A DNA stretch of 64,000 nt, from assembly GCF_006345805.1 (NCBI RefSeq), contig NC_042999.1, positions 158,658,001 to 158,722,000 on the forward strand. Direction: 5' to 3'. The DNA comes from Octopus sinensis. Taxonomy: Eukaryota. This document shows positions 32,047-42,100 of this stretch, one piece after another. Numbering within the stretch: the stretch's first letter is position 1; each line of letters begins with the position of its first letter. The position numbers were made by a program.

Positions 32047-35000
32047 ATGTGTGTGTGTATGTGTGTGTGTATGTGTGTGTGTGTGTATGTATTTGTATAT
32101 ATATGTGTGTGTGTGTGTGTGTGTACGTAACTCTATAGGAATATTATTCTTTTTTGGAGACGTACAATTTTACAGTTAATTAATGGCATGTTAAACTAAG
32201 CTAGCATTCTCAAAATATACATCAGAGACGTACACTTGGTTGTGTAGCTACTCAAACACATTGTTCTGGGTTCAGTCCCACTGCATGGCACCTTGGGCAA
32301 GTGTCTTCTGCTACAGCCGCGAACCGACCAATGCCTTATGAGTGGATTTGATTGACAGAAACTGAAAGAAGCCGATTGTACACACATATATGCATATATC
32401 TAGGCGTCTGTCTTTGTGTGTGTTTGTAACCTCACAACATTTTGGCAACCGTGTTGGCTTGTTTACCCCCTTGTAAATTAATGATGTGAAAAAGGAGACC
32501 GATAAAATAATTACCTGGTTTAAAAATCAACTAGGGTTGACTTGCTCGACTAAACCCTTGAAGGCGGTGCCCTACTATTGTCGTAGCCCAATGTCTAAAA
32601 CAAGTAAAACGGTCTATCAAGCTGATATGATAGACTTGACTCAGTCAAAATATAATGCATATATTAGATTTATATTAATTTGGTTTAAACTTAAATTTCT
32701 GTGGAAGAAATATGTGTCTGTTTAGTATCATTCTATTAGTTATGAAACATTTTGCTAAGGACATTAAGTATTTGAAAATAGTGCCGAGATTTTCAATCTT
32801 ACTATCTAGGCTATAATTCATGCCTTTTTGTTGATACTGCAAGGTTCTGTTTTACGTTGTCCATTCATTTAATAGTTTATTACTATTCAGGACATGTCTC
32901 AAGCTGAGCGGGGTTTCCTCCGTCTTTATCATTTGAGTTCATCCTTTCATCCTTTACTCCATGTGAACAACGGATTCGACATAATTACAGCCTCCCTTGC
33001 ACAAATATTTGCAACATATCTATCATAGAGCTTATTCTAGTTTTTTTATTAAGTTTGTAGCTGTTTCAGTCGAATCTAGAGCAGCTAAACCGCCTTATAT
33101 AGTTTCGTAGAATTTTATTATCCTGTATATTTCAGTTCACGTCTACGTCTATTGTCATTTTACTAAGTCGCCGAAACTGGATCGTCTATCATTTCGGATT
33201 AAGCAATTTACCAAATTTTCGTTCGAGTAAACTCATATTTATTGTGGTCATGTTATCTGACCATTTTAAGCGGAAACCTCGTCACCCACGAATTCCATTT
33301 CAAAAGCAGAGTGTTGTCTCTCGCTGGCTACTATATTAAATAGGTAATAAATCTACAGAAATAGTCGTACGGTCTCAGGAGGCAATTAACTTAAATTAGT
33401 TATCTAATAAGATAATTGATATTTTAACAAGAATTACAGATGAAAGAAAAGTGACATATGAAATTATGTACCTTAGCATCTCAATTCATTGGGTGTTATA
33501 CGGAAAATATACTAGTTGAAAGCGCCCTCTCTTTTTTGTAGCGTCATTTATTATTAATATATAATCCTTTATCATTACTGTGTAGATATTTGTGTGGTCA
33601 TTTTTCATTTTGTGTTGTCATATATCATTAATGTGTTTCCGATCAAATTGAATGAATAATGAATTACGTCTAAATTGATAACTTATTAATTTTCATTTAG
33701 TAATACTTTGTCAGTTTACTTGGAAAATATTTAAACGTCAGAATTTAGCTCATTACTTTCCAGTAAAGTTGAAAGTTTTGGAAGAACAAAGTAAATCAAT
33801 AATTAAAATTTTAATTGAATCGCAATTTCCTCCAACGCATATATTTGTAATTTTGATGTAACTGTATAATTTAATACGGACATAATTTAAGGATCTAATA
33901 GATTGTCTGTTACCCTAAGGTTAGAAAGGGAATTATTTGAAAAGATACCTTGTAATTCATCTATATTCATTAAGATATCCATTAATAACACTGCATGTTC
34001 TAATGCATTAAATATTCTTCTAAATATTGAATTAATTCTTCATTTAATTTTTAATTATAATTTCACTTTTGCTTTATTTCTAATCTTTTCATCACAATTC
34101 ATGTTCAAATGACAGAAGCTGATCTGTAATTAGCGTAAATTACGTAACTGTCTCTTTTCAACAATCAGTCAATTGCACTGTACATTGAACGCCATCTTAT
34201 AATCATTATTTCACTGAATACTATAAACTTTATATTTTAATACACAATTACTCTATTTCGGTTTTAAGTGATTTCTCTAGATCTTAGGATGTCAATAGGT
34301 AGTATCAGATGGAAGTTACAGTAAAATAAGACAGACAGGTAGTTTCAATCCTTGGATAACTAAATCCAAAGTGGGTGCTAAGGCAGGAACGTCACAACCA
34401 TTCATTCTTTTGAAATACTGAGCTTCTAATACTTCACATTATTGGACAAGGATTTCACTTTTCCAAGTAAGTATTGGCTCAGTGGCTCTTCATATCGGTG
34501 GAACGAAACATATGTCGGCATATTGTGACTGTCACAAGTTAATTAGTAATTATATGCGCGTAAGCAGTTATTAGATGAAGAAGTCACTGACTGAAATTTC
34601 TGTAATCTATTTGAAAAATATCAATATCAGGCGCAGGAGTGGCTGTGTGGTAAGTAGCTTGCTAACCACTGAACTGTTCAGACGTGCTGTTTTTTGCTCC
34701 GGCAAATGTCACGTGTTAACGTGAACTATTGAACATTTGACTCGACTACAGGTAGGCGTTTTGTATTTTTGGGAGCGAAGTGAAGTCTATTGCTTGCATT
34801 TAATGTTTTTTAGCATTAAATATTTTTTAGCAGATAATAAACTCCACTTTGCTCCAGATATAATTTTTCTGCCTGTTGTCGAGTGTAAAGACTCACTTTG
34901 CAGTGAGAATTGTATTTTTAAAGCGGCGTAGTCCGTCTGCAAAAATTGTTTTTGAAATTTTCTTTGTGTTATCCACGGGAATTACCAAGGAGTACCAAGG

Positions 35001-39134: not shown

Positions 39135-42100
39135 TTGTGTGTGTTTGTGTGTCTGTGTTTGCCCCGCCTAGCATTGCTTGACAACTGATGCTGGTGTGTT
39201 TATGTCCCCGCCACTTAGCGGTTCGGCAAAAGAGACCGATAGAATAAGTACTGGGCTTGCAAAAAAAGAATAAGCCCCGGGGTCGGATTGCTCGACTAAA
39301 GGCGGTGCTCCAGCATGGCCGCAGTCAAATGACTGAAACAAGTAAAAGAGTAAAAGAGTATCAGTATCAATTCTCTCGACATTTCTCTCACTTGTTTCCT
39401 GGAAAAATATTTTTGCTCTGGAGCGTTCAATACACACGACACGCATTTAAAACAGAAAATTAGTTTTTACATAAGGTTATTTGCTCTCTGATGTCATCTG
39501 CTTGATCTTTAGGATTTAAGTTAGTATTAACATATTGAATGGAAGGTACTTTATACAATGAAGAATCACATCTAAGTAGTTGACAAATATTACTGACGTC
39601 CATGTGCTGTGGAGGTGAAAATAAAACTGCGTTATTGTATTCGTTTCCTACCGTGCAAAATCTCCGAGATATAAGAAAATATTGAGGAACAATTATTCAA
39701 GCAGACGTATGAAAATCCCTTCCAACGTTTAACAGTATTTTGAAATTTGCATCATATTTGAACGCTAAAACAACTTAACAAATGTGTGCCACAAGACCTG
39801 AATGAATATATGAAAATGCTATAACAAAACTAGTTTTGCTGTAAGGGTGCAGAATATCGATGATCCACTTCTTAATTGCATTATGACATGATGCAAAAAG
39901 CATTCTATGTAGTAAACAGGTGGCATTTCACACAGTGCCTGTGCGGAGTTTAAGATTTAGGACACTCTCAAACTGGAACCGCAGGAAATGAATGATATTG
40001 CCACTAGTCGTTGGTGCGCAAGCGGACTTGTTAACACTATTTCTTCAATACTGATACGACAGAATTTGGACGTGTTAGATTATGAAATTCTACCTCATCA
40101 AGCATACTACCCAGACAAATCCTCGACCGCGTGCCACCGTTCGAAGCATGTCGATAATTTTGTGCAAAATCTCTTCAAAAAACACAGCAGCACGCGGCAG
40201 CTGAAAACGCCTTCGAAAAGTTCACATAAGGTAATTTGCTAAAAGTTGTGATCTGCATGATCATTAAGGTTTTAATTAGGACTAGCAGTATCGCCCGGCG
40301 TTGCTCGGGTTTGTAAGGGAAATAACTATATAAGCATTTTTAGAGATGTAAAGTATAATAGCCATCTCAATATGGTTAACCACAAGGTGGGGTAGGTGTT
40401 ACTGTAGCTTTTTACGTTCTGAGATTTAATAATAAATTTTTAGAGAGTTACTTCCCTTATATATGCCAAAAATGCATTAAAAATGGGAAAAATTGATGGT
40501 AAATCTTTTTTAAAATCGTAGACTCATTGTAGACGCGCGCTAATACCCAGAAGGGCTCGATATGAATCACGACTATAAGATACCCGGTTTTGGTTAAACT
40601 GCACCGCAAAATGCGGGAGTAGTTAGGAATCTAAATTGTAGGAGACAGACAGCTCACAACCTCACTTTTATATATAAAGATTAACATATTAAATGCAAGG
40701 CACTTCATACAGTGAAGAATCACAAGTCAGTCGTTAGCAAATACTACTTTCGAAAGGGCATCGACCTCTACTTGTTGCGGAGGTGATAATACTTTTCAGG
40801 GTCTCGGAATTACGTCCTAACAGAACAGACATGTTTGTTGTTGGCAAAATATGTACATCGTACTTTTTCTTATTTCAATTACTAAAATGTAATTTTGGCT
40901 TCAGATAGTTTGCTTTGATTTTGGTAGCAAAAAGCTGCAATTATTGTATACTACTCATTGAGTAATATTATTTGTCCTCACTTGTATACCTATTTATAAT
41001 TACATTACTTATTCTCTGTACATTAAATATGTTCGCACTATTTCTGTTGAATGCACTTTCTAATAAATTCATCGTGGAAAATTAATGCTAAATAAAATTT
41101 CCTAAAGCTTCTCTTACAGCAACATTAAATGTAAATAAAATTAATCTAAATGTTTAAAACTTAAGGTAATTTTATTGTAGTATGTAACTCTTAAATTTGG
41201 TTTTAATTAGGTTGAAAATAAAATCGAATTTATAATTTCTATTAAAAGTTGGTGCTTTTAAGTAAAAACAGAGAAAACAGGAAATTTAATATTTTTGTTA
41301 AGGTTCTAACTTTTCTTAAAATAATGTTCGTGCTTTAAACTTTGTAAATTTTCTTCATTATATTTTCTTAATTCTTTCTCGGGAAATTGAATGAATAATG
41401 CAAAACAAAAACTATTAGGCTTCAATGAAATAGAATTATAAATATTTTTAAAAGGTATACATATACAAACTGCTTTTACTGTGTTTTGAATATTAAAAAT
41501 GGATTATATTATAAAGATTTAAAATAGCTTTCTAGCAATTTATTTTCGTATTTGTTGTTTAAAATACATTTAACAGAGTGTTATGGCCGAGAAAATATTC
41601 TTACGTAAATTTCCAAACTAAAGATTCGTTTGAATTGTTACTGTCAGAAATTATTCCTTAGTTTACAGGCCTTTCTACTGTCAAAGATAAATTAACTGAT
41701 GTATTTTGAAAAGTCGGTGAATATAAATTTCAGTGTAGTTATATAAATGACAATATCAACAAATACGGTGCGTATTTAAAAAGTTCTTGCATTCGTACAA
41801 TTGTATTAACCAGTTATTATGCCAACTGAATTATTTTTGGGTAATTTTGAATTTGAGACAGGAGGCTAAATACAACCGACACATCTGTCTCTTCATAGTC
41901 TTTACATTATGCTGTACTTTCTTACACAAATATGTATCCGATTGGGATCCTAAAACAAGTGAAGATAGAAGAGTTTTCTTGAAGATAGAAGAGTTTTCTT
42001 GAAGATAGAAGAGTTTTCTAACTAAACGTAGACAGTAAATGTTAATGTATTTCTTTCTTAAAACTCGTTTGATTTGCGTTTAGCATGTGTAACTTTCTAT

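Follow-up and report, generated by a model that had tools for sequence, protein, structure and literature searches.

Two diverged ORF1-only units stacked at one site of a short interspersed element in Octopus sinensis: a candidate SINE-targeting retroelement family

Background

Target-specific retrotransposons without long terminal repeats (non-LTR elements) belong mainly to the early-branching, Tx1 and R1 groups, and their described targets include transposons and tRNA genes (PMC4640811). Tx1 families have been reported to target piggyBac, Mariner, LTR and Harbinger elements, a preference that is shared by non-autonomous SINEU passengers (PMC4494074), and copies of Utopia are occasionally found in tandem within their own target (PMC4640811). 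HAL1 is a non-autonomous derivative of L1, with several origins, that has only the first open reading frame, ORF1 (PMC5753468). In Octopus vulgaris, 421 insertions are tabulated for 13 L1-Tx1 families that were active recently (PMC13282606, Table 1). Here we describe two adjacent units, unit 1 and unit 2, in a window of 64,000 nucleotides of Octopus sinensis (contig NC_042999.1, positions 158,658,001 to 158,722,000 of the forward strand; all coordinates below are those of this window). Each carries one gene resembling ORF1 of long interspersed elements (LINEs), and both stand at the same nucleotide of a single copy of the window's abundant short repeat, which we treat as an octopus short interspersed element (SINE). 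We consider that the units are probably fossils of a non-autonomous, target-specific non-LTR family that encodes only a type I ORF1 and was mobilised in trans, each unit standing for one of two diverged subfamilies.

In ORF1 proteins (ORF1p) of type I, the RNA recognition motif or motifs (RRM) lie directly upstream of a zinc knuckle of the CCHC kind (PMC4120745, PMC5203782), and this type is known in the I, Jockey, R1, Tad1, L2 and CR1 lineages (PMC4120745). With transposon-targeting LINEs (PMC4494074) and the ORF1-only HAL1 (PMC5753468) already described, both ingredients of the family proposed here are known and no new category of element is claimed. A search of open-access full text returned no description of an ORF1-only or a SINE-targeting element in cephalopods.

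Results

The SINE has a (TA)n/(TG)n core and gives 16 blastn matches across the window, where seven copies with heads are present. The interrupted copy spans 34630-39358, which replaces the limits of 34629-39360 given in a preliminary description of the locus; like all features of the stack, it is read on the plus strand. It is flanked by its own 11-bp target-site duplication (TSD), TATCA[A/G]TATCA, read from the sequence as TATCAATATCA at 34619-34629 and TATCAGTATCA at 39359-39369, the two agreeing at 10 of 11 positions. As this TSD surrounds the whole stack, the SINE inserted in one piece and was split later. Its head fragment (34630-34666; alignment and blastn) comprises a 5' part that resembles a tRNA and contains, at 34640-34650, the A-box-like TGGCTGTGTGG, and it ends in a 15-mer, whereas the remainder (38978-39358) carries a B-box-like GGGTACAGTCCC at 38993-39004, the (TA)n/(TG)n core and a tail of GTAAAAGA repeats. 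When both halves are aligned with intact copies they yield a single SINE, cut exactly 3' of the 15-mer, in which the head ends ...GGTAAGTAGCTTGCTAAC and the tail restarts CAACCACATGG; the split that had been described thus stands. The halves are 92.75% identical to another copy at 43392-43787, and the head fragment is 97.5% identical to an intact copy over 40 nt. We take the two boxes, assigned by eye against consensus motifs, to be the internal promoter of the SINE, which the stack places 4.3 kb apart. A search with ARAGORN returned no tRNA, and Rfam at gathering thresholds returned no family.

The 15-mer AAGTAGCTTGCTAAC occurs at 34652-34666, at 36661-36675, where it forms the common border of the two units, and at 38963-38977 in a version with one mismatch, AAGTAGCTTGGTAAC. 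The start-to-start spacings are 2009 and 2302 bp, and the three local copies agree at 44 of 45 positions. Each intact SINE copy has the exact 15-mer once (4604 and 43773, minus strand), and two more SINE heads (13331 and 51210) have versions with two mismatches. In the 64-kb window this amounts to seven matches with up to two mismatches versus 0.12 expected, a count reached in none of 100 shuffles, and every one of the seven falls within a SINE head or on a unit border.

Two further observations concern the SINE. A second copy, at 51187-52029, is also split, with the break in the microsatellite core (head 51187-51403, tail about 51790-52029); its insert of ~390 bp includes a stretch at 51505-51793 that is 79% self-complementary. 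A 385-bp segment is present at 5078-5462 and, inverted and 97% identical, at 44082-44466, each copy lying a few hundred base pairs from an intact SINE with the exact 15-mer.

Unit 1 occupies 34667-36660 (1994 bp) and unit 2 occupies 36676-38962 (2287 bp), in line with the ~2.0 and ~2.3 kb estimated previously, and the 15-bp direct repeat meets each unit border base-exactly. Both units consist of a 5' untranslated region (UTR), an ORF and a 3' UTR, and only two blocks are common to them: the coding region (35200-35828 in unit 1, 37410-38033 in unit 2; 633 columns, 70% identical at the nucleotide level) and the last ~150 nt (36512-36660 and 38806-38962; 159 columns, 78% identical). The 5' UTRs differ in length (547 nt at 34667-35213 in unit 1, 748 nt at 36676-37423 in unit 2) and give no blastn match to each other; their global alignment scores about 2.3 standard deviations over shuffles, which we read as a common T-rich composition near the start codon. 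From the ORF stop to the conserved tail there are 36 nt in unit 1 and 138 nt in unit 2, which do not align. Two tandem duplications in the UTRs are confined to unit 2, one of 63 bp at 37203-37339 in the 5' UTR (2.2 copies, 100% matches) and one of 65 bp at 38662-38789, upstream of the tail (2.0 copies, 92%), and these account in part for its extra length.

At the 3' ends, AATAAA hexamers at 36657-36662 and 38959-38964 overlap the flanking 15-mer, whose first two bases supply their last two A, so that the 3' UTRs end at AATAAA as had been noted. Inspection of the sequence found no poly(A) run at either 3' end, and a repeat search of the units found no terminal inverted repeats, LTRs or long direct repeats besides the 15-mer. 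Pfam finds no reverse transcriptase (RT) or endonuclease in the ORF pieces, only a weak zf-CCHC match, and the unit lengths leave no room for such enzymes, which bears out the absence claimed earlier. Since the 5' UTR, the ORF1-like gene and the 3' UTR account fully for both units, the elements are non-autonomous. Integration by a site-specific recombinase at an att-like core was ruled out, as no recombinase is encoded. Elsewhere in the window, a 270-codon open frame at 10420-11229 on the minus strand matches RVT_1 weakly, below threshold (E 0.0035); it is probably a LINE remnant and has no sequence in common with the units or their 3' tail.

The ORFs, previously taken as intact, are broken in both units. 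In unit 1 the N-terminal frame (35214-36014), with two RRM-like regions and the knuckle at 35781-35822, is broken at 35391-35393 by an in-frame TAA; the -1 frame is then open for 179 codons (35936-36475) and holds the C-terminal part as well as a linker with the basic run KRRRRKRRGR. In unit 2 an open frame of 288 codons (37424-38290) covers RRM-like region 1 (about 37502-37717), RRM-like region 2 (about 37733-37966), the knuckle (37985-38026), a variable linker and a basic run, after which the C-terminal part follows in 144 codons open in the -1 frame (38233-38667). The frameshifts fall within 35936-36014 in unit 1 and 38233-38290 in unit 2. These intervals do not correspond in the alignment, so the lesions represent independent decay and not a common feature. 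A programmed -1 frameshift was ruled out because the shift windows have no overlap and because the basic run and the C-terminal part of unit 1 share one frame. We conclude that the ancestral gene was a single ORF of about 410 codons, with separate inactivating lesions acquired by each copy.

Selection on the protein is evident in the core, the 204 aligned codons up to the knuckle, of which 134 encode identical residues (dN 0.217; dS 1.70, which is saturated; dN/dS 0.128). Between the units 67% of synonymous sites differ, the synonymous excess in the core has a Fisher p of 4e-26, and identity at codon positions 1, 2 and 3 is 77%, 82% and 53%. The C-terminal parts are less conserved (32/111 residues identical; dN/dS 0.45; Fisher p = 0.004) and still match as proteins with E = 2.7e-9. 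The low dN/dS implies that nearly all of the divergence arose in active lineages with a functional gene, before these copies landed. Saturated synonymous divergence together with near-identical 15-mers indicates that the units diverged elsewhere and then arrived, and were not duplicated in place, as the preliminary description had also argued.

The protein is predicted to have the type I ORF1p architecture, with tandem RRM-like folds followed by CCHC, which upholds the LINE-ORF1-like character proposed for it earlier. The order is two predicted RRM-like domains, one knuckle of the form CX2CX4HX4C, a basic linker and a C-terminal part without assignment. An AlphaFold2 model, built from an alignment of 16 relatives and two octopus proteins, has a mean predicted local distance difference test (pLDDT) score of 75.8, with residues 10-205 mostly above 80, and shows a beta-alpha-beta-beta-alpha-beta arrangement twice upstream of the knuckle. 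The top Foldseek matches against the PDB are tandem-RRM proteins, namely NONO/SFPQ, hnRNP A1 UP1 and Hrp1, at E of about 1e-4; the global TM-scores are low (0.2-0.4), as expected with two domains that are differently oriented. A profile search against PDB sequences returned retroviral-type CCHC knuckles only. Among the ORF pieces, Pfam at E up to 1 gave no match to Transposase_22 (PF02994) or to the models of the ZCCHC3 RNA-binding domain (PF23057/PF23058). The ESM Atlas returned CCHC clusters of eukaryotic origin (arthropods, molluscs and chordates), with ZCCHC3-like clusters at 0.89-0.90, which serve as a lead only.

The closest protein is P0002, an uncharacterised Octopus sinensis protein of 281 aa with 64% identity over 96% of the query. 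A word-indexed protein search gave two matches with the single protein and three with the profile, all bearing only 'uncharacterized protein' Octopus sinensis names. An exhaustive HMMER search gave 68 proteins at E up to 1e-3 and 10 at up to 1e-10, all unnamed except P0002 and P0003 of Octopus sinensis; for the others identity is 22-49%, narrowing to 22-31% in the stronger and longer matches. None of 20 homologues scanned has an RT or endonuclease domain, and zf-CCHC is found in 10 of them at the scan thresholds, in seven at or above the Pfam cut-off. One of these ten, P0013, has zf-CCHC with a TatD DNase domain and appears to match by its knuckle only. P0002 (64% identity) and P0003 (85% over 47 residues) represent further copies on two different large contigs of Octopus sinensis. 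In the P0003 gene model an rve integrase domain is joined to 47 N-terminal ORF residues with 85% identity to unit 2. The annotation is probably a chimera that spans two repeats, and it reveals one more genomic copy of the unit-2-like subfamily.

Two hairpins are predicted in both units. In the otherwise variable ORF linker, a 24-nt hairpin lies at 35942-35965 in unit 1 and at 38137-38160 in unit 2 (z of -3.7 and -4.9, with none of 200 shuffles as stable), and one of its seven predicted pairs is kept through a double change. It was first flagged by a bacterial promoter and terminator scan that is otherwise meaningless for a eukaryote. The hairpin may be a cis-acting RNA element; it encodes a conserved peptide, NNGC-P, also present in P0002, and owing to this overlap conservation at the RNA level is inseparable from that at the protein level. 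A second hairpin is predicted in the conserved 3' tail, at 36524-36558 in unit 1 and 38818-38853 in unit 2.

Other repeats are present in the window, which is AT-rich (GC 0.28-0.45) and contains no N. Another short repeat family is also abundant (about 170-350 bp, 75-91% identity) and occurs at 26385-26950, 42953-43192, 53846-54205, 57489-57805, 59104-59350 and 63515-63738, partly in local tandem (26397-26707 against 26571-26891). A young complex duplication at 30715-31986 pairs 30715-31183 with 31883-31414 in inverted orientation (98.7%) and 31184-31402 with 31767-31986 directly (97.7%).

Discussion

The constant 15-bp duplication, exact borders, conserved tail and absence of terminal repeats and enzymes are consistent with target-primed reverse transcription in which the enzyme was provided in trans. 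Set against the features of a non-LTR element, the units have a TSD and neither LTRs nor terminal inverted repeats, and they do not encode an RT and endonuclease of their own. Both copies would have integrated at the same SINE nucleotide, between the A and B boxes, after a staggered cut with strand nicks 15 bp apart that left AAGTAGCTTGCTAAC on either side. The common 3' tail would have been recognised by an autonomous, target-specific LINE that had an apurinic-type endonuclease and supplied the enzymes. Most likely this was an L1-Tx1 element; Octopus has L1-Tx1 families that were active recently. Each unit would have needed its own ORF1 protein in cis, which would explain why ORF1 was kept under purifying selection.

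The position of AATAAA suggests how transcripts may have ended. With the signal completed by the AA of the target, cleavage would probably fall inside the flanking 15-mer, and the transcripts would carry target homology that could pair with the nicked target DNA and register priming, yielding precise junctions without a poly(A) tail. As each insertion would regenerate the 15-mer on both sides, stacking becomes possible. We infer these transcript-end and stacking steps from the sequence. The internal 15-mer shows that the source of unit 1 adjoined the same sequence, even if a dimer arrived in one event.

Among related elements, Dewa is a Tx1-clade LINE that targets tRNA arrays. Like the units, other Tx1 LINEs occupy one defined site in a multicopy target (Tx1L in Tx1D, Tx1-Mar in Mariner-N4_AMi, Keno in U2), form precise junctions for which poly(A) is not needed and share their target with passengers, as SINEU does with Tx1-Mar (PMC4494074, PMC4640811). 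A type-I-like ORF1, as in the units, is reported as consistent with Tx1 (PMC5203782). The SINE head is not among the targets named for these LINEs in PMC4494074, PMC4640811 and PMC5203782. The units also differ from Tx1 LINEs in having no endonuclease or RT and in being protein-coding yet non-autonomous.

HAL1 elements end in poly(A) and are not known to be site-specific, unlike the units, which have no poly(A) and a fixed insertion site. The HAL1 ORF1 is of the L1 type II (coiled coil, RRM and C-terminal domain; Transposase_22), whereas that of the units is of type I, with two RRM-like folds and CCHC. What the two have in common is the ORF1-only layout; HAL1 is an ORF1p-only, non-autonomous LINE derivative that spread as such (PMC5753468), as the lineage of the units may have done. 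With type I ORF1p of I, Jockey, R1, Tad1, plant L1 and some L2/CR1 elements, the units share the order of one or two RRMs before a gag-like knuckle (PMC4120745); they have a single knuckle versus the three common in Jockey, R1 and L2, and an extra C-terminal part of ~120 residues without detectable relatives. The R1/R2-type use of downstream target sequence resembles the 3'-end registration proposed here, which in the units is predicted from the position of AATAAA. Target-specific integration can be strengthened by co-transcription with the target (PMC4494074).

Several observations weigh against a target-specific, ORF1-only family. The evidence comes from a single locus: the site is common to two of two units, both at that locus, and blastn with a word size of 9 found no further copy of either unit in the 64-kb window. 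Six of the seven SINE heads in the window are empty, including two of the three with the exact 15-mer, so that occupancy is 1/7 and 1/3, respectively. Given how abundant the SINE is, it would be unlikely for the same copy to be hit twice independently unless stacking was favoured or a dimer arrived once. Both ORFs are broken. The knuckle motif of the preliminary description is present, but zf-CCHC stays under the Pfam cut-off (E 0.009 and 0.018), and Pfam RRM or ZCCHC3 domains gave no match in the ORF pieces. For the C-terminal part a search for longer relatives gave none, which is weak evidence; the Atlas gave no match, similarity to 70 stored proteins stayed at chance level, and its AlphaFold2 model is unusable (pLDDT 51.8). 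The tail hairpin has no compensatory pairs between the two sequences, and the whole 3' tails are no stabler than shuffles (z of -1.3 and +0.2). Finally, with no RT in the units an assignment to a clade is impossible, and type I ORF1 occurs in several lineages.

As to the number of events at the locus, the two insertions of the earlier account are not the sole way to arrive at this structure. The arrangement of element, TSD, element and TSD in a pre-existing SINE stands, and a dimer that arrived in one event fits it as well. Both template jumping and read-through have precedents among non-LTR reverse transcriptases. A single integration could have involved the whole read-through transcript of an older donor in which the 15-mer joined unit 1 to unit 2, or a jump of the RT from unit 2 RNA to a unit 1 RNA ending in the 15-mer. 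With AATAAA at the very terminus of each unit, transcripts would be expected to reach into the flanking 15-mer, and one event removes the need for two hits on one SINE among very many. The window does not separate one event from two, and tandem insertions in a target are described, as for Utopia-1_NVit (PMC4640811). We hold a single event to be a possibility, although a somewhat doubtful one; it is compatible with a target-specific, ORF1-only family and alters only the event count at this locus.

A second explanation would place the units in an autonomous target-specific LINE family with ORF1 and ORF2, typically full length, of which they are one-off derivatives by internal deletion. Internal deletions are frequent in LINEs. 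Full-length L1-Tx1 families are present in Octopus, and division gives an average of about 5.4 kb per insertion (PMC13282606, Table 1). The identical layout of the units despite a 67% synonymous difference speaks against it, since ORF2 alone would have to be deleted twice; so do the stand-alone nature of P0002, the only annotated close relative, and the lack of RT and endonuclease in the homologues scanned. We therefore regard one-off deletion as unlikely. A common layout in copies that are ~30% diverged, with a dN/dS of 0.13, favours a lineage that would have spread as ORF1-only, and to this extent the overall interpretation of the preliminary description is supported, its separate ingredients being known already.

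It is quite improbable that the SINE was not recognised at all, with the first element landing by chance and the second following, for instance, because the element's own end was recognised, the locality was a hotspot or two SINE-borne copies recombined. There is one locus, and SINEs make up 11.6% of the O. vulgaris assembly (PMC13282606), so a random hit on a SINE is not rare. Nevertheless, one and the same 15-bp duplication flanks both units with base-exact borders, and the same target bases complete AATAAA in both subfamilies; precise TSDs of constant length at one sequence are described as the signature of a target-specific endonuclease (PMC4640811, PMC4494074).

In-place tandem duplication followed by divergence, or a chimera of assembly, would be in keeping with the tandem layout, the common junction and the difficulty of assembling SINE-rich DNA. 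We consider either very improbable, given a 67% synonymous difference and 5' UTRs that are unequal and unalignable alongside 15-mers agreeing at 44 of 45 positions and SINE halves 92.75% identical to another copy, the SINE's own TSD around the whole stack and a window without N. Least credible of all, and barely so, is the view that the units do not belong to a transposable-element family and that two paralogous host genes for ZCCHC3-like RNA-binding proteins gave rise to them as processed retrocopies: the ESM Atlas lead and the annotation of P0002 as an ordinary gene product point that way, whereas poly(A) is absent, integration point and TSD are the same, Pfam finds no ZCCHC3 RNA-binding domain at E up to 1, and the non-coding 3' tail is 78% conserved though synonymous sites are saturated.

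Conclusions

The stack suggests a helper-dependent element that targets a specific sequence and parasitises another mobile element. Beyond the target-specific, ORF1-only family that we favour, we put forward a fuller proposal only tentatively, as one we find possible and would not yet favour: octopods may harbour protein-coding 'hyperparasites', ORF1-only elements selected without an RT of their own and specific to an anticodon-arm-like segment of an abundant tRNA-derived SINE, where they would part the A and B boxes; their polyadenylation signal would be completed by the target, and their co-transcribed 15-nt target copy would register a borrowed, target-specific LINE enzyme. If SINE targeting is true, the 3' ends of most copies would be followed by (AA)GTAGCTTGCTAAC within SINE heads. 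Should an ordinary Tx1 element turn out to have given rise to both units by deletion, the locus would be a matter of routine repeat annotation.

Confirmation of such a hyperparasite lineage would make it, within the scope of open-access full text, the first HAL1-like family with site specificity and the first element of LINE type to specialise on a SINE. The idea of a lineage living on ORF1 alone, drawn from HAL1, would be extended beyond mammals and vertebrates, as would the hijacking by passengers of the machinery of a LINE with the same target. As a defined RNA-DNA pair, the 15-bp target and the conserved 3' tail would allow the site choice of such enzymes to be studied. Octopus genomes are unusually rich in SINEs, whose role is debated, and a family that homes to SINE heads would, if true, be a natural antagonist of SINE transcription and at the same time pursue a safe-harbour strategy.

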